Source: Chara braunii
Lineage: Eukaryota > Plantae > Charophyceae
DNA: 61,321 bases
Direction: 5' to 3'
Assembly (NCBI GenBank): GCA_003427395.1
Contig: BFEA01000041.1
Span: 2,003,811-2,065,131 of the forward strand
Shown: one piece after another, positions 1 through 59,058 of the stretch
Layout of the letters: every line of letters starts with the position of its first letter
Position numbering within the stretch: the stretch's first letter is position 1
Notes under the pieces: generated by a model
The model's input: only the letters and a program-made list of their open reading frames with translations
The model's database searches: none
What the model was told of the DNA's origin: nothing
Made by a program: the position numbers and the translations under genes

Positions 1-1769
1 CGTACTCGAAGACACTACTATTTTTCTTTTTACTTTTGACTGAATCTGGCCAAATCTGGGCACTAGATCCATCCAGCCCAAGGAACTATAGTACAACTTT
101 TAAAAAAAGAGAAACGGGGCTGCTAAATAATAATAATAATAATAATAAATAAAAAAACTAGGACTTGGCGTGGCAACACCTTCGTGGGCTTTTTCTTCAG
201 ATCGAACTCCAATCTACACCCCAACAGCCCACGAGTGTGCCAGCCGAACTGGGCTCGGTGGTTAAGGCTAGTAATGCTGCAGCCCCCACCAGGATCCCTC
301 CTGTCTGTTGTGCCCGACCGTAACCCCCCTACTACCTCCCCTAACAGGCATGCTCATTCTGCAGGCCGTGCTAGCTTCTATCGTTTGTTTGGCTGGTCAA
401 CCACAACCTCGGAACAACCCAAACTGAGCGCACCTCCCCTGAATCTATACCAGATTCACTAGTGGGGAACTTTGCACAGTGACCACGCCTGTCTTCTCTA
501 TATCGCTCTAATTTTAACGGATGTCCCGAAGGACTGTACCACGGTAGTGGTAGCCCAGTGGGTGTATCCACTGAATGATGTTGCTGGGCTTTTCTGCAGG
601 TCCCGGCACTAGTACAGGACCTCACTCCCAGATAGAAAAAGTAGCAATGGGAAAGTAAAAAAAGTAAAAAAACAAAAAAAAACAAAAAAAAACGTATATA
701 TAAAAAATTCAAACTCAAAAATAAAATAAAATAAAAGGGTAACTTGAAGAACCGGATGCGGGAGAGGACCGTTGGTACCTGGTCCTCGGCCTCACCTCGC
801 GGGCCCGCGGTCGAAACCCCCCGAAAAAAATGCCAAGGGGGATAGTCCCACGAGACCCTCAACCCCTCGGCTCACTCCATAGTGCTCCTCCGTCGCTCCG
901 CTGCTCCGCTCTGGCCTCGATCCCGAGATCCATCTGCTGAGAACTCAATGACGTAACCTATAGGACTAAGCCCCAGCCTGGTTGCAGCAGGCGTAGCCCT
1001 CCATATGAAGAGTATCTGCTGCATGCCCAGGCCCATATGGTGTGCCACGGCCACCACTTGGCTTATTCCCCAAACCCACGACTTTGTGAGGTCGTGTTCC
1101 GCTGCCTCCAAGGCAGCCGTTGCGCGGCTCACCACTCGCATTGCCCCTTCATGTCGCGGGCGAGGTTCGAGGTTCTAATAGCCTGCCGCGACCAGCCCTT
1201 TTATCACTGCCTTGCTGAAACCCCCGACTTTTGTTCCTACTAGATCCTGTTCGCACTTCATCCCTCGGACCTCTCTGATGAGTCCAACCCCCGGTAATAC
1301 CCCGTCACCTTAGTGTGTTCCATACTATGTGACCTCAACAACTGCCACCCATAGGGCCTGGCTCCGTCCACGACTGCCAACCTCCCGCATCTACCACGCG
1401 AAAGTCACCGCTTGCGTTCTACTTTCTCTCGCACATCCCAATTACTACTCAAAGCAACGCCACTTCGCATGCCGTATGAACGCAGATGCACCATGGTCGC
1501 TTCAATAAAAGAAAAACTATTCCTGTCTTAATCAAAGCAAAAAATTTTGCCGGCGGAAACGCCGACTCTATAACATCAAGAATAAAAATCATCATGCGCG
1601 CCTCGAAACTGCGCGCCCACATACTCTTTACTCCCCGTCAACCACTCAGTCAACGCGAACCAAACACAACCGCAACTTCGCACAGTATACTCAAGTTCTG
1701 AACAAACCTTATTTTTCGTCGCTTACAAAAAACAGGGCGGATACCCTTGTAAGGGTATTCACGCCGACA
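1..1769 (-). repeat. 3' LTR of element A (partial)
   Basis: Direct repeat of 12610-14372. Homology ends exactly at ...CGCCGACA (1769 / 14372). Confidence 0.88.
472..534 (-). pseudogene. U6: U6 snRNA 5' fragment inside 3' LTR of A
   Basis: Minus strand reads GTCCTTCGGGACATCCGTTAAAATTAGAGCGATATAGAGAAGACAGGCGTGGTCACTGTGCAA, matching the first ~63 nt of plant-type U6 with a degenerate ACAGAGA box. Confidence 0.85.
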
Positions 1770-2235
1770 ACTTACCGGACCCTATTAAGCGACGTCCCCG
1801 TCGCGTCGGATAATAAAAAAAAACTATCAATTGAACTACAACTCCAAATGCTGACGAGAAAATAACCAATCTGATTGGTCGACTGACTCCGTTCGAGTGT
1901 TTAACAGACAATACCCAATATGTCTTGCTGTTGCCAGGGTCTTACTCTGGGCCTCCTGCGCGCAGGTGTAGTAGATCAGTACTACAACATAAAGTTCATG
2001 CTGGGTAGTTGTTGATAATCCTCTCCCTTTGTCCTAGACATCTGTCGGTTCATCGTTGCGTGTCCTGTTTAGTCATCGTTCTGCGTGCAGGGTCATAACT
2101 TAGGACGCGGGCCCTAACCGGGACCTTTTAAGGGCACCATCGCCTTTGTCACACAATATTCATATAAATATATATATAACTTGTAGCACAGACCTCTCTT
2201 GCAGTCTAGTACTGAAGAGTCAGATCTCCATCTTG

Positions 2236-2330
2236 GCCCACCATAACCTGGTTGATCGAGCCAGGTCTACGGCCCATTGCGTTGTTACTTTAGCAACGGT
2301 ACCCTCGTTGGTTGCGCAACGATGAGCGAT
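2236..2330 (-). ncRNA. Conserved multi-stem cis-acting RNA element in 3' UTR of element A
   Basis: Three hairpins plus a closing stem, with compensatory changes relative to the homolog at 34268-34365. Confidence 0.6.
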
Positions 2331-3906
2331 TCTCTTGATAAATCATAGTATCAGGACTCACAAAAAATACGACTCGACTCTTATCCCTCCGACATCCCGA
2401 GGGAATAAGACTCTCTGAGGCGGCCACACCCCTCAAGCCTTACCCTTTGGTGAGACGTGGGCCGGCTGACAGGTTGCGCCGGTCAGCAGCCAACACTAGG
2501 GGTTGTGCCCTAGTGATACCAGATTAACCCCTAACTGGGTCTCACTTATATGTCTTAAGATTAGCATCCTAGTGGCTGGACGGTGTGTCGCAATAACCTC
2601 AGGTCTACTGCGGGACTACGCAAAGGTCTGACTCACTCAAAGGCACATCGCCCTCTAAAAATCCACAAAAAAACCACCGCCAGATTCACTGGGCCGTGAC
2701 CTTCCACTTGATCAGAGTAAAGCAGACCTCACATCTTATGGACATCTCTCAACTTTCATCAATTTGCGACCTTCCAAAATTTCACCAAAATAATCTCTCT
2801 TGGTCTTTCTCGTCGGACTTTATCATTCCAACATGCCTTTCATGCCAGTTCAATCATTTAACCACCTTCCACTTTTGAAGGGGACTTACTTATATAGTCG
2901 CATCACCACCTCCCACACGGAGGAAAACCAACCATAAATTCTCATCACCACCTCCCACATGGAGGGGAATCAACCATAAATACTAATTACTGAGAGACCA
3001 ACTTGTGAGTCCTCGTCTCAACTCATCAAATAACATTCGACATGGACAAGCATTTGAGCCTCAAAAGACTCATAAGTCCTTTGGGACTTTTCACACCCTT
3101 CCCCCAAACAACTGTGCTTCTCTTTCTTATACTCGAGCCTATTGTTTGTCTGTAGGCAGAGTGCGCGAGTATACCAAAGAGTAGACAGTTTACACATTTC
3201 ACATTCACAAGAATGCACGAGGTGCATCCTGCACACCTCTTACACAAAAAAATCACCATACATCAGGATAAATCCGCATATGTGAGAGTGATAGTGATCG
3301 CCACATAGAGAGATAGTCTTAAGTCGTTATTATACATATGGTCGGGATATTCCAAAAAAAAATAGCCTTAAGGTCCCTCATGTATTCAGAGTTAAACTAC
3401 CTCAACTCAGAGATACGCAGGGTAATCCCTACGTCACTAATATACTCACCGTTGGTCCAAAAAAGGAAACAGAAATAACCACAATATTACATAGTATCAC
3501 ACAGAAGCGTCACGGCCTTGATAGCCGAAATAAAAAAAAAAGGAGCTTAATCCGCATACTATCACAGAGGTCTCTTCAAAGAACCGCTCAGGCTTGATTC
3601 GTAAATCATACGTATCATGAAGTCAGTATTTATTTAAACCCAATCGAATTAGACTTCAACATCACCCTAATCCTTGCAGTTACAGGCACCTAATCTGACC
3701 ACACCATCTGAATCAGTCTCGCCTGGTCAGATTCTTACCGGACCTTATTGCTAAATCCTCAGTCCCTCTTTACCCCTAATGACGGCCATACAGATGGACC
3801 CTCTTACTTATGAATACAACTTATTCAATTCTTCAATCTTTCTTATACAACCCTCACACCCCTCTACCGTAATCAAGCGGATATGCTTGACACTTTAACT
3901 TCTCTT

Positions 3907-5082
3907 TCACAGTTGTTTCCACATATGGTCTCGTTGACCCTTATCGCGACCTTCAGTACCTCGTCTGCCTCCTTCACGGCCTTCATTGCCACCACGTCTG
4001 CCATTCCCGCGACCTCTTCCAATACCTTGCCCTCGCCCTCCCTTGCTTGCCGCACTGCCTTGTGACGTTCGTTGTGCTGGTGGATGGGGCGACCCAAAAG
4101 CTGGGCTTGGTTTGTAGGAAATCCTGGCGGTATCAAGCTCATTAGCGGTTTGACGTGAGGTCCATATCGGCTTATAGGGTCCTGACCACCTAGTGTACAT
4201 GGCATACACAAAGATCACGGAATCATTGGATCGCATGGCGGCCACCACCTACATAATGCCGGCCCGATCGGAGGGAGCGTGGTCGGTGCAAGACTACTTC
4301 CTTGCCCTTGTGGAGCAGCCGTCATATGTTGTGAACACTGCCCTTTTCCAGTACCTTGACCCCCCTGGGCCAGGTTTCTCACCTTCCGTTGGGCCTTCGT
4401 CAGCTTGGGAGGGTTATGTTTCTCTTCTTCCTTAGCTATCTCCTTACTTTCTCCCTTCTCCTGCACGTCTGACTGCCGTTTCTGGACCTTCATAAGGTGG
4501 GAAGGGTCTTGGTTGCCATCTACCCTCTCCTTTCCTTTTCCACTAATTGGCTCACTTGACGTTCTTTCCGAGATTTTCTGCTTGCCCTTCCTGGCCTCTT
4601 CTAGTCGCGTCATCCTTTTTTCTAATATCCCCATTTGTCTCTGTATACCGCCTAGTTCGCCTTGTATCTGCGCATTCTCTGTTACTTGCACAGGGTTAGC
4701 ACGATGTTGACTCTCATCTCCATCCTCTGGAAACCTTAACCTTAAAGAACTCTCAAACTCGTTCCAGGTTCGCGACTTCCACATGAGGGTATATATCTCC
4801 TCACTTAACTCCTCACCCACGAATAATGGCAACATATTGCACATTGCTTCCTCGTCCCATATCTTCATGCGACTAAAGTTATGGTAGTCGTGCAGGAAGA
4901 CGGACAAATTTCTTCCTCGAAACAGCAGGGCCTGGAGATCTGGGGCCATCGAGTCGTGCACCGACTTATGCAGCAGAACCTTCGTGAGGCATGAGCTCCT
5001 CCAGAGCAGGATCTTGGTCAAACCACTCTCTTCAGCCATATATATGACAAACAACGGAACATCAGGCTGTAGTCTGACATGC
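3907..5082 (-). pseudogene. Degenerate gag-like ORF of element A (capsid-like N-terminus, coiled coil, RGG-rich tail)
   Basis: ORF 4215-5054 has FRGRNLSVFLHDY...W...TWNEFESSLRLRF, a retrotransposon Gag capsid-type pattern. A frameshifted continuation reads GGRGQGIGRGRGNGRRGG. It is preceded by the acceptor-like TTTGTTTTTCTTAG. Confidence 0.65.
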
Positions 5083-5461
5083 TAAGAAAAACAAAACAAG
5101 GACAACTAGCATTGTCCATACTAAATCCCATTAGCCCTTTCATTGCTCGTCTGACAAGGATTCCACTTATCCTTATACATAAAATCTTAAAACAAGTTAT
5201 AGATTGATAGCAGAAGTTGTCACACTGCCACTAGTCATTGCGCCCGTACTCGTTAGTAATACAACTATGAACGAGCCCCTAAGAATCCCAATGAGGTGAT
5301 GCACGTACTTGCTAATTTTCGCGGCATCCTCTATCTGCATGCTGCTGCTCGAAGCTCATCCCAACCTTCAGCCTTTTCATCCGGCTCATGGGAGCAGGCA
5401 TAGGCGTCCACAATAATTGCTATATTTCGGAGCCTTTGACCAGGGGGTGAAAACCTAAGGT

Positions 5462-5971
5462 CTAAGTACAGATCAATTCGCATGTATAACGCGCATACCC
5501 CCATCCTTGCACTCTCATAGCTGCCTCTACTGCCGCCTCTATCCTCGCTTGTCCCCCAAAAAAATCTTCTACGAGGAACCTGGGTAGGATGGCGCGTAAC
5601 GGCGCCAACGGAAGCACAAACTCTCTGGTGGACTTGACCTCTATATGAGTAGACACATGCTCTTCTCCTTCATAAGACCTTTCTCTTGCCCATTTCGTCG
5701 CAGCCGCTTCAACTACCCTTAAAGGTCTTGCGAGGAGGCTCCCGTGTCCAAGCATCAGCTTAACCCAATGTTTTACCCAAAATGATGATGATGCGTATAG
5801 GGTTACTCTCACGATCGCACCGTCTTGATCATCATTAAAGCCGGATTCAATCCGGACAAAGATATCAGTACCTAGCAATACGCCCCACCAGGGAGAGATG
5901 TATTCTCCTTCCTTGACTCGCCTTGACAATGACATCTCGAGTCCCTCATCCTTTTCAACTGGCCGAGCCAC
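5462..5971 (-). CDS. Accessory ORF of element A, unknown function (probably decayed)
   Basis: 169-codon open frame with protein-like composition, between the PBS leader and the gag-like ORF. No recognisable domain. Confidence 0.35.
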   Translation of the reverse strand: MARPVEKDEGLEMSLSRRVKEGEYISPWWGVLLGTDIFVRIESGFNDDQDGAIVRVTLYASSSFWVKHWVKLMLGHGSLLARPLRVVEAAATKWARERSYEGEEHVSTHIEVKSTREFVLPLAPLRAILPRFLVEDFFGGQARIEAAVEAAMRVQGWGYARYTCELICT

Positions 5972-7626
5972 AGTTGGATCCTCCTCAGCCTACGACATGT
6001 TGACTTGCCTTAGCTTTGTCCGGATTCTGCCCATCACAGTCGAACGTCCAACATATGTTCTTCGTTACTATGCTAAAACCCTCATTTTGCAATTCTAATT
6101 GCACTGTGAGGTCCTTACCGGACCATATTGTCGAAACCTACTCAGAGATAACCATAATGGATAAATAAGTAAAACACTTTTTATAACATTAACGCCTCAA
6201 CAATTTATAAATTATATATACATGCGTAATGAAAGCCTATAACCACAATAAATAATAAACACATCATGGTCCAAAAATACAATTTGCCAATAATAAGTAC
6301 CTTCAGATGCAGAAATAATGAGAGTGCTACATTCTACTCCCCAGCCTTGACAGAAGTATATTGTGTCGAGGGGCAATGTAATCCTTTTCAAGATGGATAA
6401 CATCTTAAATTCTTGAGCCCCGCTCAAGGATCAAGCCTCACTTCATCTCCCTCCGATTCCAACACTCGCACCTTGTAGACCCTTGCCAATAAGGTAGTCA
6501 ACCTCACCATGCATACTCCAGGATACGTTGTCCCTTCGCAGTCAGATGAACCCACTCGACACAAAAAATAGTTGGGGATTCACCCCCTACCTCTCTGTGG
6601 CAGGTAGTAGCTGCCTCCCTCAATGGTCATGGTTTGACAAGGTTCAAACACTTTCCTCCTATTAAGTAGTAATGTAGTCATCTCACCACAAGGGATTAGA
6701 TGGCAACACCCCACTATGGACCAGGAACATAGTTCCGATGTGGGTCTTACTACTACCTTCAAGACTAGTTTATAACTTCTTCAAAGTCATATCTAAGGAA
6801 AATAATAACATAGGGTTGCAACTTTCTTAGGTTAGACTTCACACATTGACCATTTCCTTGTGAAATTTACTCTCCCAAGGACTTGGTCACTCCATTCACC
6901 CCCGAATCCGCCTCAGACGTGGATTTTATGCAACATTTATAACCCCTTTTAAAAGATCAACCCATGCATATAGAAGAAAAAAAAACGGATATGTATGAAT
7001 AATTCAGATAAGGCAGCTCCAAGCTCCAATGGGTTATACATAGTCAAAATGAACTCAGATAGATAGCTCACGTAAATAGTAATGAATGAATAAGGCTCAG
7101 ATAAATAACATCAAGCACATAGTCTTATATAAGTCGATATTTAAATATGCTTACTTAGATGAAATTTTAAATGCAGATTGGTGAATTTCACAGACTGAAA
7201 AGTATAATCTCAAAATGATAACTCAAATGCTTGAATAGACAGAATGTTAAATGACTTTTTCTTACAAGAATCCTTAGAAAATACCTCTTTCTTAGCCAAA
7301 CTATTTCTTATTGCTAGCGTACCGTTATACGGCCATAACTATTTAGGCAGCTCATTGACTATGTAAAGGTATCAAAGATCCTTTCTTGGGTAACCGAATA
7401 TACAGAGTCGCACCTAAGGCGAACGATGATCAGTTTATGGCATTAGATATGCAAAATATCGTCCTTATTACTCTGCGACACCTCGATCCACAAATATATA
7501 AACTGCACTTGCTTCTACTCACCACCCACTTACTTAACGTCATTAACAAATTTTGTCGTTTTGCCTGGATCATCAGCCTGCATTTAACCTGGGTCCGTTA
7601 TCTTAAGGACCCCGATAGGCAGCTGA

Positions 7627-7646
7627 GATCCCCGGCAACGGCGCCA
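7627..7646 (-). promoter_or_regulatory. Primer binding site, tRNA-Asp(GUC)
   Basis: Minus strand TGGCGCCGTTGCCGGGGATC lies 2 nt after the LTR end. It is complementary to the 3' end of plant tRNA-Asp, the primer known from Athila elements. Confidence 0.93.
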
Positions 7647-9715
7647 CCTGTCGAGCGCATCGGTCCTGCACGGGGACCCTCCCGGTAGCGTCACGCAGGA
7701 TTATGCAGGACTTGTCGCGGAGAGCATTTGCCGCTCCGCCCGAGTGCGTCAGCCGTACCTCTCGCGAGTCCCTACAACAGGACAGAGTCACGCAAGACAC
7801 CGCTACCTCCACCTGCGGGAGTTGTCACCATCCCTTAGGTGGGCGTATCCCTGCCGAGCTACTGAACCACATGCGAAAGCTTTTCGTATGCAATTGCAGA
7901 GGTGGCCCAGCCGAGGGCGTTTCTCGTTCGTTGTAGCATAGGGGGTACGCGCGGTCGAACGCCCGAAATCGAACCCGTACGAGAGTCGTCGTACTGGGGG
8001 GCTGAAGTCCCAAACGCGACTCGACGCCGGTCGACTAGGACGCACTACACACACCACGCGTTACACCACAACACTCGCATCTACCACTCATAACTCATGG
8101 AACACACGTAAAACAAACACCGCAAACAACGCCACAACAATACTCCTAGTCCCTTCAGTACCCAACCCATAACTCTCTGAGTCAAAATTTGGTTAGGCGT
8201 CGCGCATAGAACTTAGTATAAAATTGTGCGGACGTAGGGCCTTCTCATATAGACTCCCGATGCATGAGTACGCAAACAATCACAACAATTGGAGTACTAT
8301 GTGGTACTTATAATCATGCGATCCTTGTTAATCGAGAGGGTGGCATTCGACACTGAAGTGTCGGCTGACACACGCCTTGAGGGTTAATCTCTCGACGCTG
8401 GACAACCGCCAAGTGTGGTTGAAGACTACACCCTCTTCTGCACCCTGCGCAGAGGGGTTGAGTAGACAACTTAAAGTTGTTGTGGCGACCAGAGATCAAG
8501 GGGTTTGACTTTGAGGGTTGCCACGGACTGCAACGTTCAACCATAATAACTCTAAAAAGTAAAAGGTCAAAGAGGATCCTCCTTTTCTCTTAGTGCAAAA
8601 CTTACTTAATCACTATGCACGGCCTCAACGGGTCGAGCGAACACAAGAAACATGATATAAAAGTTATGACATAGGAGACGATCACTCTCACAATCACGGT
8701 GCGGCTTCCTTCAAATATATATACATATATAATCATATGCAAAATCAAGTCTGGATTCAACTCACAAAACATACCTGCACTCACATCAAAGATCCACATC
8801 AACAAAACACACACTACACGGGGTCAACTTCAACCATTCTCTGCGCTCACACCCCTCGCTTTGGTCATACAAACCTCACTTTTTGCCTTTAGGTTGAGTG
8901 GCAAGAGTGAATTAGAGTTGAGTCGGAAACCGACCTGTTATCAGTGATAACAGAAAATTGGTTCTTTGGAAGGAGTAGGCTGACCAGATCAAGCCTTCAA
9001 GTGAAAACACTGAAACCTGCATCATAGTATAGATCAAAGAAAAAGTACTATTTATGTTGAGGGGAAAACATCCTCCTAGTCGTAACCTAACTCCTCTACT
9101 AGTACCAAGTCACTGGATATCTCCTCTAATCATGATAGATCTACCAAGTAACTCCTGGCTGAAAAATATTCTAACTCCCCGAAAATATTCTAACTCCCCG
9201 AATTCTACGAAATTTCGGCAGCTCTTCCCATAGGAAAAATGCATTTTCATAATTTCTATAAGCTCAAAAATGACTAACTCTTTTAGATTTGTAGAAATTT
9301 CGGCAGCGCTTCCCGTAGGCACAGGAGGCTGTCAAGATTTATACGAAGCTGAAAAGATAAAAAGACAAAGCAAACTATACTTGGGACTATCTTCTGACAC
9401 CCGCTTGATGATTCAGAATCACTGATAGCCTGCACGACCTCTAGATGAGATTGTGGGTTAGCATTGATCCTAACTCCTAGCAGGGTCAGCCTATCTTCAC
9501 CCCAAGTTCTCCCTCCCATCATCCATTTTATCTCCCTATGGCTCGAGCACTTGGCGAGCATCTAAAGCAACTAACCTACCGAAAGGACGCCCCAAAGTGA
9601 GAGCCCACAGGCAAGCATAAACATGCATCGCTCACAATCCCACATCAATTTGCCTAAGTAGTTCATTAGATCATTCGGTTCTTCCCTTTTTTTTAAAAAA
9701 CTCACTTATGGCATA

Positions 9716-10790
9716 GGATTAGACAAGGCCCTAACTTAAGGGTATGCCCAACCTGCCTAAGTAAACAAGTAAGAGTACGCACAACTGGACTGCCCTAACT
9801 TAACGGTATGCCCAACTCCAAATAAACTCTAGTCATAAAACATGTGACCAGACCGCCCAAACTTAAAGGTACGCATGGCTTCTGTTTAAACAGACGACAT
9901 GAAGCGTGAGACTAGACTGCCCTAACTTAAGGGTATGTCTAGCCAGCCTTACACAAAGTTACATAGGGCATAGGATTAGGCTGCCCCAACTTAGGGGTGT
10001 GCCTAACCTGCCTAAAACAAGTACGAACGACGAATTGTCAGACCGCCCTAACTTAAGGGTACGTCCAACCTACATAACATCAACGACAAGAGCATAACAC
10101 TAGGCCGCCCTAACTGAAGGGTATGCCTAGCTAACTTAAACAGTATAGTTACATAAGACAGAATCTGTCTGAAGTAAGTACAACGACGTATGACTAAGCC
10201 GCCCTAACTTAAGGGTACACTTAGCCTCCGTAACGACAATATAGAAGAAGAACCATTGATACTGGCACAAACTTTATATGTTTCTCTCTTATTAGGCAGA
10301 GGATCAGACCTACCCAACTTAGGGAGACATCCAATCCTGCCTTGTGTTTAGAAGGGAAAATAAAACATGTTTATACTAACTCTCTGCTCCTTTGTATTGT
10401 CACGAGCATAGGATCGAATTGCCCTAACTTAGGGGTACGCTCAGCCTGTCCAGATTACCTTCATTATATTCTTCATAGCTTTCCTCCTCTTCTTGTTCTT
10501 CCTGACTTACTGACTGACTTTCCCAACTTACGGTGTCCGGTCTGTCAGATAGTATAAGTTCGTATAATATATATCAAATTTGTATACTTTTGGTTGACCC
10601 TTATGTTCATGGCTTATGACTGAGCCGCCCTAACTTAAGGGTACGCTCAGCCTTATACCTGTGTTCCCCTTAGAAGAAACACACAAAACTGGGTCCACGC
10701 AACTTAGAGTATTCCCAGTTCTGTTTTCAGCAACCCACAAAAGAAACACCAGGATTCTGGGACCTCCCAACTTAGGACGCTCATCCTCCT
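9716..10790 (+). repeat. Array of 14 interspaced ~32-nt hairpin repeats (consensus CTAGRCYGCCCTAACTTAAGGGTAYGYCTAG)
   Basis: AACTTA loop cores at 9733, 9797, 9860, 9924, 9988, 10050, 10112, 10206, 10316, 10426, 10525, 10632, 10701 and 10769. The first seven units have a 62-64 nt period with ~30-nt A-rich spacers. Confidence 0.9.
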
Positions 10791-10796
10791 GTGCAG

Positions 10797-11558
10797 AAAC
10801 CCCATGCAGATTTGTACTACATCATTAACGGCCAGGTAAGACCCCCTCGACGCCTTTTCTCCCTCTCGTCCCCTTCCCCTCTCTCTCTCTCGATTGTATT
10901 GGGCCGTCTTACACGGCCAGGTCCATCCGTATACGGCGTTTTCCCTCATGCAGAAGGACGACCGCCGACGTAGTGTGCCCCTGCCTGCAGAACTGGCCCG
11001 TGTGATCTCCCTTCCCAGGCAAACGCTGGCTTCCAACTTCCTCCCTTATTCCTCACAACCACCCAACGGTAAGCGTGCTTCCTCTCCCTTCTCCCATTTC
11101 AGTGGCGTGCTTGTCCAAGTGTGTCGCTCCACGGCGATTCTTTAGGTACACATGTATCCGGTCACTCGACTGGCCAGGTTCACCCGTGACTGATATGCTC
11201 CTACTATAGGAAGAGACAAGCCCCCTGCGGTCAGAAGTTGCTGGGCGGGGATCCTACCGCGGCTTCGAGAGGATACGCTCCCACCGCGGATATGTGAAAG
11301 AGCCCCACGATGGCGAAGGAAACCATGATGTGGACGAAGATGGTTGACGGGACTGAGCTCCCTTCTCCTGTCCGTGATGATAGGCAGTTCGTCCGTGATG
11401 CTCGCTCCCACGTCCTACTACCCGTCAGCTGCACAATGATGCCGAACGGACTTCCCCATAGGCCAATTCATCCCTCGCTCCCACTCACCTCCGCGCAGCT
11501 CCGTTCCCACGTAGCACACAATCTACTCACTAAGTCCGAAATCCGGGCACACCACTGA
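10797..11558 (+). pseudogene. Spliced antisense gene remnant inside LTR A (exons 10797-10835, 10921-11068, 11146-11558)
   Basis: Canonical junctions TGCAG|, CAG|GTAAG, CAG|, G|GTAAG and TTTAG|. The exons splice in frame (KPHADLYYIINGQ|VHPYTAF...PPNG|THVSGH...EIRAHH*) with two internal TGA stops. Confidence 0.65.
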
Positions 11559-13074
11559 CTTCGCCCTGCAAAAAAAAAAACGGATCCGGTCCTTCCCTCA
11601 CTCAATTTCCCAAAGAGACGAGTGAGTTATATGTTCTTCCCTCTCTCGCCACCAGCTATCTCCACCATCCCCTCAGTCGCCGACTGTATCTGGCGAGAAT
11701 TTTCGTCTACATTCCTACGCTCCCCCTTTGCCTGGTGACTGCTTCTACTCTTGTGGCTGCTGCTGTCCCTTGGCTTACCAACGCACCTAGCTGCCCGCTA
11801 CATCAAGTTCGCTCAAACTTCGACCATCGAACGTCGTGGGTGGGAAAAAAGATCCGAGAAGATGACCGTAGTCCGTATTACCAACCCTCCTCACTATGAA
11901 GATCGCAGCAATAGAGAGGACGGGAGAGCCNCAATCAAGCCGAACACAAGTGGGTGGGGCCCACCCCACTTACTACAAAAAATAAAAAAATAAAAAAATG
12001 TGAGTGAATCTTCCGCTAGAAGGTGGAAAGATGCACTCACTCCCCGCTTGGCTCTTCCCCCCCCCTTCTTATACCGCGCATGCCCTCCTCTTCATAACGC
12101 GAAACCTACCATTCCTCGGCTAAATCTAACTCCACCAATCCATTCGTAGCGCCCCAAAACCCCTATTTAGCTTCTTTTTTCACCCGATTCTATGGAGGAA
12201 CAAGAGAGATAGACACTTTTAACTCTTACTCTCCCTCCTACCTTCGACATCGTCGCACACTGATTTTTCCATCTAGCTTCACTTCTACTAATTCTCTGTC
12301 GAAACTGACCATAAACTCGAGTTCACCCACCCTCAAAAGCTCAAGTTAGCAGTCTAGTCTGACAAGGCTCATCAAGGAACAGCAAGGTCGGACTAGTTTC
12401 CCTTTCTTCCCTCCATATCTGCCTTCCTTCGTCGTCGTGTCCTCCCCTTTCCCTTCTTCTTCCTCACTACTCCACGAGCCTCCCCCTCCAGCCAGAGTAC
12501 ACCCGCACGGTCAGCAGTCTTGAGCATCCTACTGAAAGTAAGCTCCTGATCCCCGGACCTCTCTGTCTTATATAGCCCAGAATGGCATGCCTGCCCAACT
12601 CACCCATGCCGTACTCGAAGACACTACTATTTTTCTTTTTACTTTTGACTGAATCTGGCCAAATCTGGGCACTAGATCCATCCAGCCCAAGGAACTATAG
12701 TACAGCTCATAAAAAAAGACAAACGGGGCTGCTAAATAATAATAATAATAAATAAAAAAACTTGGACTTGGCGTGGCAACACGTTTGTGGGCTTTTTCTT
12801 CAGATCGAACTCCGATCTACACCCCAACAGCCCACGAGTGTGCCAGCCGAACTGGGCTTGGTGGTAAAGGCTAGTAATGCTGCAGCCCCCACCAGGATCC
12901 CTCCTGTTTGTTGTGCCCGGCCGTAACTCCCCTACTACCTCCCCTAACAGGCATGCTCATTCTGTAGGCCGTGCTAGCTTCTATTGTTTGTTTGGCTGGT
13001 CAACCACAACCTCGGAACAACCCAAACTGAGCGCACCTCCCATGAATCTATACCAGATTCACTAGTGGGGAACT

Positions 13075-13137
13075 CTGCACAGTGACCACGCCTGTCTTCC
13101 GTATATCGCTCTAATTTTAACAGATGTCCCGAAGGAC
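13075..13137 (-). pseudogene. U6: U6 snRNA 5' fragment inside 5' LTR of A
   Basis: Second LTR copy of 472-534: GTCCTTCGGGACATCTGTTAAAATTAGAGCGATATACGGAAGACAGGCGTGG. Confidence 0.85.
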
Positions 13138-14372
13138 TGTACCACGGTAGTGGTAGCATAGCAGTTCATGGGTGTATCTACTGAACGATGCTGCTGGGCT
13201 TTTTTGCAGGTCCCGGCACTAGTACAGGACCTCATTCCCAGATAGAAAAAGTAGCAATGGGAAAGTAAAAAAAGTATATAAAAAAAAAAATTAAAAAAAT
13301 ACATATATATAAAAAATTCAAACTCAAAAATAAAATAAAATAAAAGGGTAAGAACCGAATGCGGGAGAGGACCGTTGGTACCTGGTCCTCGGCCTTACCT
13401 CGCGGGCCCGAGGTCGGACCCCCCCGAAAAAAAAGCCAAGGGGGATAGTCCCACGGGACCCTCAACCCCTCGGCTCACTCCATAGTGCTCCTCCGCCGCT
13501 TCGCTGCTCCGCTCTGGCCTCGATCCCGAGATCCATCTGCTAAGAACTCAATGACGTAACCTATAGGACTAAGCCCCAGCCTGGTTACAGCAGGCGCAGT
13601 CCTCCATATGAAGGGTATCTGCTGCATGCCCAGGCCCATATGGTGTGCCAAGGCCACCACTTGGCTTATTCCCCAAACCCACGACTTTGTGAGGTCGTGT
13701 TCCGCTGCCTCCAAGGCAGCCGTTGTGCGGCTCACCACTCGCATTGCCCCTTCATGCCGCGGGCGCGGTTCGAGGCTCTAATAGCCTGCCGCGACCAGCC
13801 ATTTTATCGCTGCCTTGCCGAAACCCCCGACTTTTGTTCCTACTACATCCTGTTCGCACTTCATCCCTCGGATCTCTCTGATGAGTCCAACCCGCGGTAA
13901 TACCCCGTCACCTTAGTGTGTTGCATACTATGTGACCTCAACAACTGCCACCCATAGGGCCTGGCTCCGTCCACGACTGCCAACCTCCCGCATCTACCAC
14001 GCGAAGGTCACCGCTTGCGTTCTACTTTCTCTCGCACATCCCAATTACTACTCAAAGCAACGCCACTTCGCATGTCGTATGAACGCAGATGCACCATGGT
14101 CGCTTCAATAAAAGAAAAACTCTTCCTGTCTTAATCAAAGCTAAAAATTTTGCCGGTGGAAATGCCGACTCTATAACATCAAGAATAAAAATCATCACGC
14201 GCGGCTCGAAATTGCGCGCCCACACACTCTTTACTCCCCGTCAACCACTTTGTCAACGCGAACCAAACACAACCGCAACTTCGCACAGTATACTCAAGTT
14301 CTGAACAAACCTTATTTTCCGTCGCTTACAAAAAACAGGGCGGATACCCTTGTAAGGGTATTCGCGCCGACA

Positions 14373-15462
14373 ACGGGTCCTACCGGACCCGACATAGGGG
14401 TAGAAGGACATAGTAGGGCCAAAGGCCCGACCTTGGGGGGAACTACAGGCCGTAAAGGCCTCACCTTGGACCAGACCCGACGGGCAGGCCCAAACAACAT
14501 TACCGTTTGGGCCTGGCGGCGCTCTTGAGGCTGCCGCCCGCCGGTTGGGGCTGAACCGTCCATGTGGACGGTTGAGGGCATGGCCTGGCCTCGCAGCATT
14601 GAGGCCGGCCTCTGCCCCACCGGTACAAAGAACCGGTACAGCCTCAGTCGAAGGGATCGACCTACCGGCACTCTACCGGTACGGTATGGTACAGCGCACA
14701 TTAGCGCTGGCGCTATCTTTAGCGCAGGAGCAGCGAGGAGCAGCGAGGAGCAGCGCAGCAGCGGCGAGCGGAGCAGCAGCAGGGCGACTGAGGCAGACCG
14801 GCGGCCATCGCCGCCTGAGGTATTAGGGAGCCGGAAGGTTCTCTCCTCCCTCCCATCGTCAGTCCCCTCTCTCTCTCTCTCTCCTCCTCGCCTCCTTCTT
14901 CTTCTTCTTCTTCTTCTTCTTCTTCTTCTTCTTCTTCTTCTACTTCTTCAAATTGGAGACTTATACTAGTTGGACAGAGATCAGTGTTGGACTTCGGTGG
15001 TATGAGACTGTGGTACTTACCGGACTGGAGACTTGGAGATTGTTGGGGTTGATACTTGGCGGCATCACAGTTCGGACACCGGTTACATTTGGATTCTGTA
15101 TTTCCGACATTGGTGACTGATTGTCCTCGACATTTTGATCTTGTTGGATGATATTTTGGACTACCATATCGGTGACCTATCGGATTCTATTTCGATGACC
15201 TACCGGTGTTGTCTACCTCCCCCACCTCCTTCGTCTCTCCTCCCACCTTTCATCTGTGTATGAGTGTATGGGATCTGGGCATCGTCCATGCTTGGCCCAG
15301 ACCCCACCATCTCACGATTGTATGTGTGTGGAGTGATTCTTGAGTCAGTCTATGTGAGTCAGTCTATGTGAGTCAGTCCGTTTATAAAACTTCCGCCGCC
15401 TACATGCTCATCCTACATTGGTTGATCTTTGGTTATGCCCATACTCATTGAAGTATGTAAAA
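14373..15462 (+). repeat. 5' LTR of chromovirus (first ~20 nt displaced by element A)
   Basis: Direct repeat of 22376-23598. Ends ATGTAAAA (mutated ATGTAACA). Confidence 0.92.
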
Positions 15463-15466
15463 GTTT

Positions 15467-15478
15467 TGGTATCGGAGC
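15467..15478 (+). promoter_or_regulatory. Primer binding site, initiator tRNA-Met type
   Basis: TGGTATCGGAGC lies 4 nt after the LTR end; the canonical form is TGGTATCAGAGC. Confidence 0.85.
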
Positions 15479-15503
15479 AGACCAATTACGGATCTGCTCA
15501 CCA

Positions 15504-16477
15504 GGTAAGACTGATTTAGGAATTAGATTGTTCTTCAATCTTCCAAATCAGCGCTGAAGTACTATCAAGTTCAAAGTTGCAATTTTTTTTATTTTTTTTT
15601 CGGTATTCTGTTTATTTCGGCACTTCTGTTTCAATTCAGTATTCGAACTTATTATTCTGATTTCTGTTTTCGCCGGTATGCTGTTTCATTAGGTTCCGAT
15701 AAATTGATTCTAATCCAACATTCTGTTTGATTCGGATTTCTGGTTAGTAATTCGTAATTAGGGTTAAATCAGTTTTCTGTTGATTTCGGCATTCTGATTT
15801 TCTTTCGGTATTCCATTTTTATTTCGGCATTCTGATTTTTAATCCGGTATTTCGTTTTACAAATCGGCATTTCCGTTTTATCGGAGTAGTGAAAATTAGG
15901 GTTACGCAATCTTTGGTTTTAGATCAACTTGGGGAATTCGAACGTTTTGGGGACTGTAAATCCGGAAATTCCGTTGAAATGCGAAAAATTAGGGTTGGGA
16001 CCGAAATTTTCGCGAATTTTTTTCTTTCAATCCCCTTGTTTGAGAAATTCCGAAAACAGGTTTAGGCCTTTAAAAATCGGATTTTGATGGAGGAATTTCC
16101 CGAAAATTCACGTTTGTAAAAATTCGAGTGTTTTTTCCTAACTTTTTCCGAAACTTTTTTTTGGGCAAACTAATCCGAAGCTAACCCTCAAAGTTGCAAC
16201 TTCCGGGTTTCACTCATTAACGGTGAATTCCCGGACCATAGATGATCTCAACGGATACCTCATCTTGATAAAATTCAAATTCGTTTATCATCATTATTGC
16301 AAAATTGTTTATTGCGGATTATCTTTATTCTAAACATTGCTTATTGATGATCATTAAGAATTATTATTTCGTTATTTATCATTAAATAAGTTTTATTGAT
16401 TAAATAATTCGTTAACTCTAATTCTTATTACGAATTGTTGAATTGTTTACATGAATCTATATTTCTGTTTTGATTAG
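15504..16477 (+). other. Putative intron in the chromovirus 5' leader
   Basis: CAG|GTAAGA donor just after the PBS, a T-rich body with ~20-nt TTCGGCATTCTG-type tandem repeats, and a TTTCTGTTTTGATTAG| acceptor before gag. Confidence 0.55.
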
Positions 16478-16612
16478 GTGTCTACAGTCCATCAGTGGGA
16501 TAGGGGACTGTATGTGCATTGTATGATTGTTCTACCCCTGTTTCCTTTCTCTCTACCCTCCCCGTATTATGTGACCATCGGGACCTCTCAAGTACCGCAC
16601 CAGTTCACACTG

Positions 16613-18403
16613 ATGTCAATGGAACAGGACACCGGGGCACTGCCACGGCGCAGTGCCAGGCTCGCAGTTCGTGCCCGCCCTGCGGTACCTCCAAGACCCA
16701 AGAGACTTAGCAAGCGGAAGACTCCAGCAACATCAAGTACAGCATTGGCGGTACCGGACACCACCGGAGTTCTTCCCGCGTGCCTGGTTCGAGGGGCCAG
16801 TGAGCCGGTGGCTGACTATCTTGGGCGACTACAGGTATTTACAGATGTCGTAGCTGCCGCCAAGGCTTGGCAAGAGGCAGCAGAGGCAGAACGTCAGCGG
16901 CTGGCCAATGAGGCAGCAGCCCAAGCTCAGCAGACGGCTGAGGCCGACGCAGCGGCACGAGACCAACGGAATGCCGCCAGCTCGGAATCCCTGATTCGTA
17001 ATGAGAATCAGTGGACAACGAGCCTCGAGGGCATGATCTTTGTGTCTTTGGAAGAGCAGGCAGATCCAACACCGGCGGAGGCAGAGAGGACTCACCTGGC
17101 TAACGTGATGTTGACGATGATGCGAGCGATCATGTGGAACAATACGATGTTAGCGGTGCAAATACACGAGGGCAGACAACTGCGACAGATTCAGCAGAAG
17201 GATTCTGCAGCCTTATCAGTTGTTGTTCGCACTACCGCCACATATCAGCAACAACAGCAACAACAGCAACAACTGTTGAACACCACCACCGCACGCGTCA
17301 GCAGCATCGAGGCTAAGACCTCAGCAGCGCCAGGCTGCACGACAGACGAGACGAAGCAGCTCAATGGGCGCATCGATCACGTCGTCAATCTCATCGGCGA
17401 CATAGGTGTTTTCAATGGGCCGGACACGATCAGTAGCACGGTGACCGCCATCAAGACGGACATCACCAAGCTGCAGACGAGACCGGACGCCACTACGAAG
17501 AACTACAAGATGCCGCACTTCGACATCAACAAGTTCGACGACCACAACAAGACGGACGCTTTGGCATAGTGGCAACGTTTCCTCACGGAAGCATCATGTC
17601 GCACTGTCCCAGATGACTATCTGATGAAGGCGTTATACTTACAGCTGATTGGAGGAGCGCAGGCATGGATGAACCATCTGGCGGCTACCCACACATGCAC
17701 CATCGCCGAACTTCACACGCACATTACGTGNAAGGATTTCGAGAAGCTATGGTTCACCCGTTTCATGGTCCGCAACGTCGTGAAGGCGGCCATGAACGAA
17801 GTGTATACCTGCTCTCAAGGGAATATGCCAACTCGAGACTGGACAACCAAGTGGCAGAAGATAGTGACCACGCCAGGATTCGATTTGAGTTTTACCAATC
17901 AACGATCCGAGTTCTTCTCGCGATCGTGCGCAGGACTACGATCGGCACTCGGCAACGAGTACGATTACGATTCATTATAGGCCATTCAAGATCGCGCAAA
18001 CTTGGTCATCCAAACGGATGACAAGGCTGCAAACGAACGGCAGTCCCAGCCGCATTATGTGGCTAAGCATGGCTATCAACGTCCGACACATAACAATGTC
18101 GTGATTTCGGAAGAAACAAACGATCTCCACGCTGTAGCAGCATCCTCGAGTGATGGAGGAATTGTAGCAGCGCTCCCGCCAAAGCGTCCCAAGAGAGTTC
18201 GGAAGAACAAGAAGACACAAGACACGGCATCGACGGGAACTGGGCCGCAACCATGGACAGCTTACAAGATAACCAAGGATGTCTATGACCTCCGTCAAAA
18301 GTACGCATACTGCCTTTGGTGCAACGGCGTCATGCACTTGACCGCACAATGCCCCGAAAAGGGCAAGACATGCGTATCCCGTCCAGCAAACTCGGGAAAC
18401 TAA
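16613..18403 (+). pseudogene. gag: Chromovirus gag (two in-frame TAG stops)
   Basis: One reading frame across ORFs 16478-17569, 17624-17980 and 18002-18403. Capsid-like KMPHFDINKF...AQAWMNHL...FEKLWFTRF and zinc knuckle CLWCNGVMHLTAQC. Confidence 0.88.
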
Positions 18404-18443
18404 GTTACGCAAGGAGAGGGGCGACGTCTCTCCTCACTCCGCC
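18394..18443 (+). promoter_or_regulatory. Putative -1 ribosomal frameshift signal (G GGA AAC plus pseudoknot)
   Basis: Slippery heptamer immediately before the gag TAA; pol is in the -1 frame. Stem AGGAGAG/CTCTCCT with loop GGCG able to pair with downstream CGCC. Confidence 0.7.
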
Positions 18444-21400
18444 GGAACCGGTTGCCTTGCTAGCAATCGATGTCACTACCGGGAAGCATGCGTTAGTCGC
18501 TGATTCTCGTGCCACGTACGAGGATTATGCCGCCCAGCATTTACCACCACTAGACCAGCCAAGCCACGTGCACTTAGAGTGCGTATGCGCAGCCTGTACA
18601 CCGTCGGCAAGTGATCCGGTTAGTTCGCCACTGATTTCCAAGGACTCGACGGCGTGGTCAAGACTTGAGGAGCTTGACCCGCTTACGAGAGAGGACTTCG
18701 CTTGGATGCCTCTACCCTCGACCGAAACCTTGCCAAGGCCGCATTGCAACGCCTTGATGGCAACTCTACGCTCCTATTTGCACGCTACAGTACCAGCTCC
18801 GTTGACGGACGACGGAGTAGCTGTTGTCGATCTCCGCTCCTATCTTGCGAAGATTGACCGCGAGTACGCCACCCAAAGGTACGCCGAAACCGATGCACCT
18901 TTGCTCTATATCCGCATTCAAATCGGAAAGGCAGCCTGTAGTGCCTTGATTGATTGCGGAGCGTCTCGTAACTTTATGAGCCAAGCCTTTATGGCCCGCG
19001 CAGGTCTTGGCCCGCACGTTCGAGGGAAGACGCAACCTACGCAAGTTACACTCGCGGACGGCCGCACGCAAAAGTCAATTGACCGATGCGTTGACGGCGT
19101 TCCGGTCTACTTTGCGCCACTTGCGTGCGAGCCGGCGTCTTTTGACATCCTCGACACCAAGTTCGATATGATTCTAGGCATGTCTTGGTTGCGTAGTGTC
19201 GATCATCCGGTGAACTTCCATGACCGAACCGTTCACATCCGTGATCGGAACGGAGTGTTAGTCCCATATACAGTCGCGACCCCTCACACTTCGATTGCTT
19301 GTCACGTGGTTTCCGTTGCGAGAATTCGCGACTCCATTGCTCAGAATGACGTCGAGGAGATGANCCTTATATTCTTGCATGCTCTCCCCTCGCCGGACGG
19401 ACCAGCCGCGTCACCGCCGGACCCACGCATCACTCACCTCTTGAACGAGTATGGAGACGTCTTCGAGGCGCCCACCGAAACGGTTCCAGATCGGCCCATA
19501 CGTCACAGGATCACTCTCGAGGCGGGCGCCGTCCCTCCGCGTGGATGTATCTACCGCATGAGCGAAGAGGAACTCGAAGTGCTTCGCGCACAACTCGATG
19601 ACCTTTTTGACAAGGGCTGGATTCGCCCTAGTTGCTCGCCATACGGAGCACCTGTTCTCTTCGTCCGGAAGAAGAACAAAGATCTACGGTTATGCATCGA
19701 CTATCGCGAACTTAACGCACAAACCGTAAAGAACGTCGGCGCTCTCCCTCGGATTGATGATCTCCTTGAGCGGTTAGGCGGCGCGATGTACTTCTCGAAG
19801 TTGGACTTGAAGTCAGGTTACCACCAGATTGAAATCCAGCCTCAAGATCAGTATAAGACCGCATTCAAGACGCGGTACGGGTATTTTGAGTGGGTTGTCA
19901 TGCCCTTTGGCCTCACCAATGCCCCCGCAACTTTTCAAGCAGCTATGACGACTGAGTTTCACGACTTGCTCGATCGCAGCGTCCTCATCTACCTCGATGA
20001 CATCTTGGTCTATAGCAGGACGTTGGATGAGCACATCGCACACCTTCTCGTTGTTTTGAATCGTTTGTGATTGGCCAAGTACAAAGCGAACCGCGACAAG
20101 TGCGAGTTCGCCAAGCAAGAGCTTGAGTATTTGGGCCACTATGTTACGCTGAAAGGCATTCGTCCCTTAGCGGACAAGATCCAAGCCATCGTGGATTGGC
20201 CGGAACCCCGTTGCACGACGGACGTACGCTCTTTCATGGGATTGGCTGGATATTATCAGCGATTCGTTGATTCATACTCGAAAGTGGCAGCTCCTTTGTC
20301 GAGACTTCAGTCCCCGAAGGTGCCCTTCGAGTTCGACGATGCAGCCCGTGGAGCGTTCACTAGGTTGAAGGCAGTGATGCAAGCCGCACCTGCCCTCCGT
20401 ATATACGACCCCACCCTACCCACCCAAGTGACTACGGACGCTTCGGGATACGGGATTGGTGCGGTGTTGGAACAGTGTCACGAGGACGGTTGGCATCCGG
20501 TCGAGTATTTCTCCCAAAAGGTGCCTCTCGTAAACACTCTCGACGACGCTAGGAAGAAAGAGCTACTCGCATTCGTCACCGTTCTCAAACGGTGGCGACA
20601 CTTTCTTCTCGATCGTCGACGTTTTAAATGGAATACGGACAACAATTTGTTGACCTTTTACAAAACGCAGGATACGGTCACTAGTACGGGGATGTATTAC
20701 ATCGACCAGTTCGACTTTGACCCGTGCCACATTCCCGGTCCCGCCAATCGAGTTGCGGACGCCCTCTCACGACGGCCCGACTTTTGTGCCATTGTGACCA
20801 CGGCATTCGACCTCGATGACGATCTGCAACCGCATTTCGTCAAAGGCTACAANTCNGATCNGACTTANTCTACGCTNTACGCGGAGCTTTCATCGGATCA
20901 CCCGCCGGCTAGCCACTATCGGATTGCAGACGGGTTCCTTCTCCTTCACACGAGAGGAAAGGACTTGTTAGTTGTGCCCCAAGATCGCATTTTACGAACT
21001 CGTCTTCTCGGCGAATTCCACGACGCACGACTTTCGGCACACCTTGGCGTGAACCCCACTGGCCCGACGTCCTTCATGACGTCACGAGGTACATTGAGTC
21101 ATGTGCAGTTTGCCACCGTAACAAGGGTCAATCTCGTTTCCCCTTCGGCAAACTGAAACCTTTGTCGATCCCTCGGGCACCACGCCTCTTCATTGCTATG
21201 GACATGACAGGCCCGTTTCCCCGCGATCGCCACGGCCATGACGGTATTCTCACGGTCGTTGATCGTTTGAGCAAGTATGCTGGCTTCCTTCCTTGCAAGT
21301 ATCATGCTGCAGCACCCGAGCTCGCAAGACTCTTGCACACCGGTTGGATTACCAACCAGGGTGTTCCGGAAGACATATTGAACGACCGAGATACTCGCTT

Positions 21401-22331
21401 CATGTCAACCTTTTGAACTTCCCTCATGGCTGAGTCCGGTACGACAATGAAGCCGAGCTTAGCTCGGCACCCGCAGACGGATGGCAAGACGGAGCGAGCG
21501 CACCAGACCGCTCAGATGATGTTGCGTACGCTCATCCGTCCCGATCAGAAAGATTGAGTTGACCGGTTTCCCGATATCGAGTTCACCTATAACACTTCGG
21601 TGCAGCCGGCGATCTGCATCACACCATTCGAGCTACATCATGGTGGAGAGAAAGCACTGATCTTCGCTGATCTCCTTCTGCCACAGGCTGCCGACATAGA
21701 CGCCCCTTGCTCTCCCGCTTCCGTTCGGAAGTACCGGGACTTGCTGATCAAAGCCCACGCAAATATGCAAAAGACTCAGATCCGCATGCAGCAGCAGGCT
21801 AACCGATGTCGACTTCCATGTCCTTTCCGCGAGGGAGACCTTGTTTGGGTCCTCTCCGAGGAATTTGCGCTCGAGCAGGACGTTTCGTGCAAACTCCTTC
21901 CGAAGTGGTTCGGACCTTGGAAAGTCACTTCTCCCATTGGAGACGACCCCGCAGGTCCTTCCTTCGTGATCAACATTCGACCGCACCTTACAGTGCATCG
22001 GGTCTGCCACGCATCGAAGCTGGCCATCTACACGCCACCTTCAGTGGACGACTTTCCCGGACGTCGATCACAAGATCCGCCTTCCATGGACGGACATCAG
22101 GAAGTGGACCGTGTCATCACGCACCGCAAGTATGGCAACAAGCCAATNCAGTACAAAGTCACATTCAAGCAATGTGCGCCTGACGACACTCAGTGGATCT
22201 CTAGTGCAGACTTGCAGACTTCTGCACCCCTTATCTTCGCCAACTATGAGAAGACACGACTTGCCAAGGCAGCAGCTCGTCCCACCCGACCTATCCCGGT
22301 ATCGGACAGACAACTCCGCCCTCGCAAGTAG
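18394..22331 (+). pseudogene. pol: Chromovirus pol: protease, RT, RNase H, integrase, chromodomain (stops, frameshifts)
   Basis: ALIDCGASRNF (protease), RLCIDYRELN / MPFGLTNAPATFQ / YLDD (RT), TDASGYGIGAVL (RNase H), MDMTGPFP...VVDRLSKY (integrase), LPKWFGPW (GPF-like motif), QEVDRVITHR...YKVTFK...TQWIS (chromodomain). Confidence 0.95.
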
Positions 22332-22342
22332 CTCGGTCTTTT

Positions 22343-22353
22343 AAGAGGGGGAG
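22343..22353 (+). promoter_or_regulatory. Polypurine tract
   Basis: AAGAGGGGGAG, 2 nt before the 3' LTR. Confidence 0.9.
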
Positions 22354-22355
22354 TG

Positions 22356-25492: not shown

Positions 25493-25997
25493 TATTTAGT
25501 AGTGAATCTTTCAACATTCTAGCGAAAGATTCGATCGATTTTGTTCACCCTCTTTCGATGGGAGTTGCGCGAACCCAGCCCGCAACCTTGGATTGATCAG
25601 AACACTCACACACACACACACACATAGTAGTACACTCAACACACACACACAGATGCACTAACACACGTACACCTACATGCGGCAATGTATACTTCCACAT
25701 TTTAATGGAAGATTCATTTGATTTTATTTATTTATTTATTTTATTTTATTTATTTATTTATTTATTTATCTTATTTTATTTATCCTTTCGATACCTCGAG
25801 GTAAGCTACCCGATCGACGATTTACTTGTTCCCTCTCTTCCAACGTTGCTGCCGTCACCGTCGCCTTCCGAGCCGCCCTCGTCGGTCGCCAGGTAAGTAT
25901 TCGTTCCCCTCCTCCTTCTTTCCTTTCTCCTTCTACTCCTTCTTCTTCTTCTTTGTCTCCTTCTCCTTCTCCTTCTTCTTCCTCTTCTCCTTCACTT

Positions 25998-58954: not shown

Positions 58955-59058
58955 AATTCAGACTATGTCTCGATTTTTGCTGTCATCCTTTTCGCCCAGG
59001 GGCCATGCTAATTTTATTTCTATGTTTTGTTTCAATTTTAACGGATGTCTCGAAGGAC
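58955..59058 (-). pseudogene. U6: Full-length degenerate U6 snRNA copy
   Basis: GTCCTTCGAGACATCCGTTAAAATTG...ATTAGCATGGCCCCTGGGCGAAAAGGATGACAGCAAAAATCGAGA; the ACAGAGA box is destroyed. Confidence 0.88.

Follow-up and report, generated by a model that had tools for sequence, protein, structure and literature searches.

A duplication-grown array of covarying sense-strand RNA hairpins in the LTR of a pol-less Chara braunii retrotransposon, a possible set of docking sites for a Gag-type protein

HIV and SIV carry TAR and RRE, structured RNAs that lie within or close to the LTR, TAR being composed of a lower stem, an internal loop, a 4-bp stem and a hexaloop. The packaging signals of many single-stranded RNA viruses are short structured repeats, represented by the UUYCGU hairpins of coronavirus SL5 and by the packaging signal of MHV, i.e. 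genome-sense hairpins with the same loop and variable stems (accessible part of PMC8206606). Among the Ty3/gypsy non-chromovirus retrotransposons, Ogre, Retand and Tat are very large and combine very long LTRs, up to about 5 kb, with tandem arrays grown by duplication (accessible parts of PMC6317226 and PMC11963269). In Retand the arrays, which are of unknown function, separate pol from the 3' LTR; the words 'hairpin', 'stem' and 'secondary structure' occur nowhere in the accessible text of PMC11963269. The non-autonomous TR-GAG and LARD elements possess LTRs and a primer-binding site (PBS) and have no pol; TR-GAG elements code for gag only and are under 4 kb long, LARDs are free of internal coding regions, and no significant leader structure was found in TR-GAG1 (PMC4350172, accessible part). 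Retrozymes are non-autonomous plant LTR elements whose structured RNA motif is a single hammerhead in each of the LTRs, which measure about 350 bp, and whose interior is non-coding (PMC4918200, accessible part), while a survey of sugar-beet non-autonomous elements nowhere mentions 'hairpin' or 'secondary structure' in its accessible text (10.64898/2026.03.01.708851). Our literature search, with supplements, Repbase and most subscription papers outside its scope, found no description of the array reported here or of any LTR that contains an array of covarying hairpins.

The window analysed (61,321 nt of Chara braunii contig BFEA01000041.1, positions 2,003,811 to 2,065,131) consists of LTR retrotransposons nested in one another; the features of the element that carries the array are collected in Table 1, with positions counted from the start of the window. 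Judged by its sequence features, the carrier is a minus-strand, pol-less LTR retrotransposon of Chara with a gag-like ORF. A previous sequence-only reading had placed the array inside an LTR, and the boundaries agree with this location: segment 12610–14372 matches 1–1769 at 94.8%, with a minus-strand TG start at both 14372 and 1769, the LTR end is followed by a PBS-like motif, and 164 contigs of the DNA run X1 have loose ends before 7649 (agreement 0.35). The PBS at 7646, which we take to be of the tRNA-Asp type, as in Athila/Tat elements, was picked by recognition from the 48 sites in 1800–12700 that have the form 'CA then TGG'. The interior measures 5879 bp and the whole element ~19 kb. The array lies in the 5' LTR, 2.1–3.1 kb upstream of the PBS. 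The 3' LTR continues beyond the left end of the window, and the array copy belonging to it falls outside.

For the ORF at 4218–5078 (minus), 10 of 475 candidates proved homologous, each a hypothetical protein of C. braunii (best 76% identical). The Atlas features of the gag-like ORF lie at 0.87–0.90 to the DUF7041 and Retrotrans_gag clusters, which is a lead only; the Pfam search identified no gag family in this ORF and no family in the ORF remnant upstream of it. Comparison of 60 pol-region pieces with the element gave a best E-value of 0.002 over 45 aa, and Pfam detected no pol either. Because it has no pol, the element would need cis signals and proteins supplied in trans. The carrier resembles TR-GAG and LARD in its LTRs, PBS and apparent lack of pol, and TR-GAG also in a gag-like ORF whose gag identity is a lead only, but it is far longer than TR-GAG and contains a second ORF remnant, and unlike LARD it keeps ORFs (3910–5998) with conserved homologues (cf. 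the accessible part of PMC4350172). With Ogre, Retand and Tat it shares the very large size, the very long LTR and an internal array grown by duplication, but here the array resides in the LTR rather than between pol and the 3' LTR, is conserved in structure rather than in sequence, and is too diverged for Tandem Repeats Finder, whose output for the window does not contain it. As in retrozymes, a structured RNA motif is located in the LTR of a non-autonomous element; Rfam revealed no ribozyme family in 1–15000 at E ≤ 5.

Table 1. Features of the hairpin array and its carrier element in the window
Feature	Position	Strand	Basis or remark
Hairpin array, 14 units	9716..10790	minus	loop positions, folds, alignment of units
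Units 1–7, regular block	9717..10132	minus	period 62–64
Units 8–14	10192..10789	minus	spacing longer (68–110), more diverged
5' LTR of carrier, 6724 bp, TG...CA	7649..14372	minus	repeat match, PBS-like motif, loose contig ends
3' LTR start	1..1769	minus	match to 5' LTR; extends past left window edge
Primer-binding site, 2 nt past LTR end	7629..7646	minus	CA end at 7649, then PBS-like motif
Gag-like ORF, Arg/Gly-rich tail	3910..5039	minus	protein homologues, tblastn; frame change near 4135 vs P0001
Upstream ORF remnant, putative	5334..5998	minus	conserved in P0003, P0008, P0009, P0010
TATA-like box, one of several candidates	12568..12574	minus	consensus match only
Candidate intron across array, donor-like 11488, acceptor-like 9349	9349..11488	minus	consensus scan

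Several further observations concern the carrier and its surroundings. The carrier is inserted ~20 nt into the 5' LTR of a chromovirus-type Ty3/gypsy element (14373–23598, plus) with protease, RT, RNase H and chromodomain. The carrier's LTR end is found again, in another context, at 28304–28533 (plus), where the 3' end of a same-family LTR (80–95% to 7650–7846) adjoins a region coding for pol and has in turn been interrupted by a further element. A piece of the 3' region of 18S rRNA (25994–26109, minus, E 3e-4) is embedded in a long repeat related to 34812–38745. In the carrier interior a 9-nt motif, whose minus reading resembles a splice donor, occurs three times (1773, 3736, 6116), one copy lying directly before the 3' LTR, at the place expected for a polypurine tract. 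Both carrier LTRs contain a U6 snRNA-like piece (440–534 and 13042–13137, both minus; E 1.3e-4 and 0.1, under the Rfam gathering score), and further U6-like pieces are present at 58952–59058 and 59101–59160. The LTR pieces recall the small-RNA-derived LTRs of Cassandra, Helenus and Ajax; 'snRNA' is nowhere mentioned in the accessible part of PMC10886601.

The loops of units 1–7 are located at 9733, 9797, 9860, 9924, 9988, 10050 and 10112, and those of units 8–14 at 10206, 10316, 10426, 10525, 10632, 10701 and 10769. The 13 unit-to-unit periods (64, 63, 64, 64, 62, 62, 94, 110, 110, 99, 107, 69 and 68) are exactly those claimed by the sequence-only reading, and the spacers range from 25 to 73 nt. 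Units 11, 13 and 14, and likewise unit 1, require a register shift to be aligned. Four of the 78 spacer pairs are homologous at p ≤ 0.01: 1 and 5, 4 and 7, and 5 and 7, whose likeness had been pointed out before, and additionally 12 and 13. Moreover, 9698–9880 repeats 9955–10132 at 73% in a higher-order duplication, and a block of ~255 nt recurs within the carrier copy at 73%. As the earlier reading had supposed, the array has grown by duplication and not by spacer acquisition. A model made from the units recovers 14/14 of them, all on the minus strand, as its construction implies, and has no further hit below E 2.4 anywhere in the window; the remaining long repeats yielded no additional units with this model, and Rfam gave no match across 9716–10790 at E ≤ 5. 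Two core-pattern matches found elsewhere were dismissed as chance: one in metagenome contigs agrees with the 21-nt core only, and one in viral contigs is devoid of the conserved outer stem and lies, by eye, in an apparently unrelated coding region. A two-copy tandem repeat of 63 nt in AT-rich DNA (43994–44125), each copy of which holds inverted arms flanking a short A-rich loop, has the period of the array and does not match it in sequence.

On the minus strand each unit is predicted to form a variable stem of 7–8 bp, a 3x2 internal loop (RYA/CR), a 4-bp stem (CCCU/AGGG) and a UAAGUU loop, and the near-invariance of the hexaloop reported earlier is confirmed by its identity in 13 of the 14 units. 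The loop-closing pair is U-A in seven units and C-G in four, altered in these on both sides together; unit 5, in which this switch had first been seen, is one of the four. Pairwise identity between units, calculated for the nine gap-free ones (2–8, 10 and 12), is highest in the loop (0.96) and falls through the inner stem (0.85), the internal loop (0.73) and the outer stem (0.59) to the flanks (0.43 and 0.32), while the mean column identity of the unit alignment is 67%; this order points to a recognised tip on a free stem. The best conserved stretch of the unit is the 14-bp core CCCTAACTTAAGGG. With the HIV TAR hairpin the unit shares its general geometry, but it occurs in 14 copies and has a 3x2 internal loop and another loop sequence. 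A short hairpin near the 5' end of the LTR, conserved in related elements (14340–14365, 1738–1762, 28261–28293, 34814–34840), has the CCCU/AGGG stem in common with the array unit; as a speculation, it might be the ancestor of the unit or a site for the same protein.

The choice of strand is based on folding energies and pair types. RNAalifold distinguishes the minus strand, with an 11-pair hairpin of -9.26 kcal/mol, from the plus strand, with only a 4-pair side helix of -0.71 kcal/mol and no loop-closing hairpin; the energy is lower on the minus strand for 13/14 units with 16-nt flanks and for 11/14 with 26-nt flanks. When the register of the outer stems was set from Watson-Crick pairs alone, the 14 units x 7 pairs on the minus strand were Watson-Crick in 67 cases, G·U in 23, A·C in 4 and of another kind in 4. 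The sequence-only reading had assigned the working G·U wobbles to the plus strand and regarded the RNA as antisense to the element; both assignments are reversed here. Its bulged 5-bp stem is a plus-strand view resting on one near-invariant column (G·U on plus, A·C on minus, in 10/14 units), and what persists on the minus strand is a 4-bp stem. The minus strand is G+U-rich, with an expected G·U share of ~0.61, and in one column G·U is the ancestral pair; if this column is dropped, the G·U excess is 15/19 (p=0.07 at 0.6). An excess as large as that observed arose in 3–23 of 2000 simulated star runs and in 60–89 of 2000 Yule runs, and the G·U excess becomes weaker once the non-independence of the units is counted. 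The minus strand is that of the PBS and the gag-like ORF, i.e. the sense strand of the carrier, and for this reason the hairpin RNA is not antisense. Plus-strand folding was rejected on the grounds of energies, pair counts and the missing consensus hairpin. The likeness to the geometry of the iron-responsive element was likewise abandoned: that element has a CAGUGN loop with a C bulge, the loop here is UAAGUU (AACUUA on the plus strand), and Rfam gave no match at E ≤ 5. Inspection also led us to set aside a kissing-loop role, UAAGUU being not self-complementary and the palindrome that straddles it being lost in the units closed by C-G.

CRISPR arrays, like the Chara array, consist of palindromic repeats and dissimilar spacers at a regular period, but the Chara repeats diverge by covariation and belong to a eukaryotic retrotransposon. 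A CRISPR-like or small-RNA precursor array cut to unit length, or an antisense structured RNA, would account for the repeat-spacer look with its period of 62–64 in units 1–7, for the RNA reads in both orientations (see below) and for a strong donor-like site on the plus strand after the array (10836). We nevertheless regard this explanation as highly improbable: the spacers are copied from each other and uneven in length, the repeats are not near-identical in their outer stems, and no consensus hairpin forms on the plus strand. Comparison with viruses, suggested earlier for the spacers, gave no array match by BLAST in 50,697 phage records, and in agreement with the previous statement that no cas-like gene is present, the Pfam scan of 18 of the window's 127 ORFs of at least 100 aa found no cas family. 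The likeness to CRISPR does not extend beyond appearance, and the CRISPR interpretation was rejected. For Dicer-like enzymes, stems of 11–12 bp are short as a substrate.

The covariation of the outer stems, noticed in the sequence-only reading, withstood quantification. In the 14-unit alignment 9 of the 12 pairs show change on both sides; 81.5% of the 168 cells are paired, compared to 72.2 +/- 1.8 in shuffles (as high in 0/500), and 23 cells are changed on both sides, compared to 9.1 +/- 3.1, with 0/500 shuffles reaching the covariation score. In slid controls the paired share drops to 24–54%. The count of further pair types gave no such signal, since shuffles match or exceed it in 262/500. 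As related sequences can beat shuffles, neutral duplication was simulated from a fully paired ancestor unit on star and Yule trees with three transition biases and the observed stem identity matched; units 1, 11, 13 and 14 were omitted owing to their register shift, template switching was left out, and the structure tested came from the same units. In units 2–10 and 12, 67 of the 70 outer-stem cells are paired on the minus strand, whereas the simulated maximum was 64, 67 being reached in 0/12,000 runs; the observed loop identity was reached in 1/12,000. These results support selection on stem pairing and loop while the spacers drift, as the sequence-only reading had proposed. Selection on the sense-strand hairpin is well supported, and we infer that it folds in the cell.

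The same simulation bears on the view that the array is a palindromic minisatellite in neutral decay, in which template switching at the reverse-transcription step maintains the complementarity of the arms. Growth by duplication and a unit number that varies among copies agree with this view, the simulation did not include template switching, and tandem arrays of unknown function are common in large non-chromovirus elements (accessible parts of PMC6317226 and PMC11963269). Such an origin of the conservation is nonetheless very unlikely, because the loop identity so greatly exceeds that of the flanks and was matched by a single neutral run, because an asymmetric internal loop has been kept that palindrome correction would erase, and because G·U pairs, beyond the Watson-Crick ones, are retained on one strand.

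Other genomic copies provide a further view of the family. In X1 contigs the summed word depth, which is not to be equated with copy number, is 8,000–23,000 over the array and 24–51 at 10929–11883. The 3' part of the LTR (about 7650–10900, including the array) has many genomic copies and the part at 10929–13000 few, which shows that the array and the LTR end are common to many loci and that the LTR further upstream is nearly private. The segment 10929–11883 is nearly single-copy, with a depth of thousands to hundreds of thousands in the LTR 3' part, and on a side reading it is a swapped or captured module; the array segment may itself be nested in origin within the LTR. The best-supported 40 of 1009 differences between the carrier copy and the others were considered; these were picked as private to the carrier copy and say nothing on rates. 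Among the 13 of the 40 that fall in the array, six (9804, 10036, 10414, 10419, 10432 and 10531) are positions where a pair broken in the carrier copy is restored in other copies, one (10545, unit 11) turns A-U into G·U on the minus strand in other copies, two (10420 and 10536) concern the internal loop and four fall outside the stems, while 0/13 break a pair in other copies. The differences show that the family state was well paired and that the carrier copy has decayed since its insertion. DNA joints within the array, e.g. 10114>10267, 10520>10679, 9941>10017 and 10646>10144, imply that units have been lost and gained among copies; the comparison of unit number across copies, recommended earlier, is answered in part by these joints.

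RNA reads were taken from two oligo-dT runs, X8 and X9 (101-nt reads; 6% and 12% of the runs used), of uncalibrated library orientation, and were compared with the part of the LTR up to 13000. X9 covers the array 10–22-fold in each orientation, in balance (83.8 vs 92.3, six bins), and 7873–9591 at ~1:2 by orientation (221 vs 450). Only 46 of 3354 X9 reads are at least 99% identical to the carrier copy, and the array reads therefore come mostly from other copies; the X9 profile largely tracks DNA depth. The depth of X8 over the array is ≤2. No clustered read starts or ends were found in X8 or X9. These reads are of interest for a DNA-level reading, in which the array lies in U3 and supplies transcription factor, insulator or anti-silencing sites with the core CCCTAACTTAAGGG, the palindromic arms being secondary or, as part of the same reading, forming hairpins of single-stranded DNA while the element is reverse-transcribed. 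LTRs commonly bear tandem enhancer motifs, the 14-bp core is better conserved than any other stretch of the unit, and the X9 strand bias starts only downstream of the array, which on one reading puts the array upstream of the transcription start. We consider this role unlikely: a double-stranded site needs neither covarying outer arms nor a G·U excess on one strand, the closing pair is altered on both sides in four units, and the strand bias comes from a library whose orientation is uncalibrated.

A less remote function, and the main rival of the one favoured below, although still rather unlikely, is that of a regulatory platform analogous to TAR or RRE, in which the sense hairpins would be bound by a protein of the element or of the host and would bring about more transcription, or export or stability of the unspliced RNA. 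Covariation, folding and simulations fit this function equally well. The array is located in the LTR, downstream of the TATA-like box (12574) and between the donor-like and acceptor-like sites of the candidate intron, its units resemble TAR in geometry, and the element carries an extra ORF and an Arg/Gly-rich tail. On the other hand, the TATA-like box and the splice sites are consensus matches, the plus strand has equally many splice-like sites, the donor-like site sits in the low-copy part of the LTR, and none of the 15 RNA joints listed of 404 corresponds to the candidate intron.

The role that we tentatively favour, as a serious possibility just short of an even chance, is that the array provides multivalent docking sites for a Gag-type protein that packages the sense RNA. 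It is favoured because of the analogous repeated structural motifs in viral packaging signals (accessible part of PMC8206606); as in those motifs, same-loop hairpins with covarying stems are repeated here, and the strand predicted to fold is the genome-sense strand. The Chara array differs from them in its 14 tandem units, its growth by duplication, its variable copy number, its position in an LTR and its loop (cf. PMC8206606, accessible part). In the proposed mechanism, 14 hairpins with the same loop would fold in the cell on the sense RNA of the pol-less element; a protein would read the 4-bp stem with its UAAGUU loop and also the internal loop, the lower stem would have only to pair, and the ~30-nt spacers would serve as linkers. 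More units would give more avidity. The docked protein would be Gag, either the element's own or that of a helper element, and its capture by the hairpins would bring the element RNA into particles. A point against packaging is that retroviral core packaging signals are mostly located downstream of the PBS, and the Chara array is upstream of it. The X9 reads over the array, balanced in orientation and derived mostly from other copies, likewise count against it, as do the weakened G·U excess and the count of further pair types. Where the sequence-only reading had left a choice between a multivalent protein-binding array and a processing array, our analysis supports protein binding as the likely role.

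A broader proposal, which we regard as possible but doubtful, is that the array is an equivalent in nature of engineered stem-loop cassettes of the MS2/PP7 type, expandable and coded by its loop, that it is present in the LTRs of many Chara elements, and that the unit number tunes the capture of Gag; pol-less elements would in this way compete for particles, and such arrays would constitute a general, undescribed class of cis-signals of LTR retrotransposons. How RNA is marked for packaging in LTR retrotransposons of the plant lineage, above all in the non-autonomous ones, is largely an open question. The array offers a concrete 35-nt motif with a defined strand and with variable and invariant positions, which makes it directly testable by mutants. 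Arrays of this kind slip past tandem-repeat finders, and many may have gone unnoticed. Should the motif be bound by a protein, the two together would represent a new natural RNA-tagging module.
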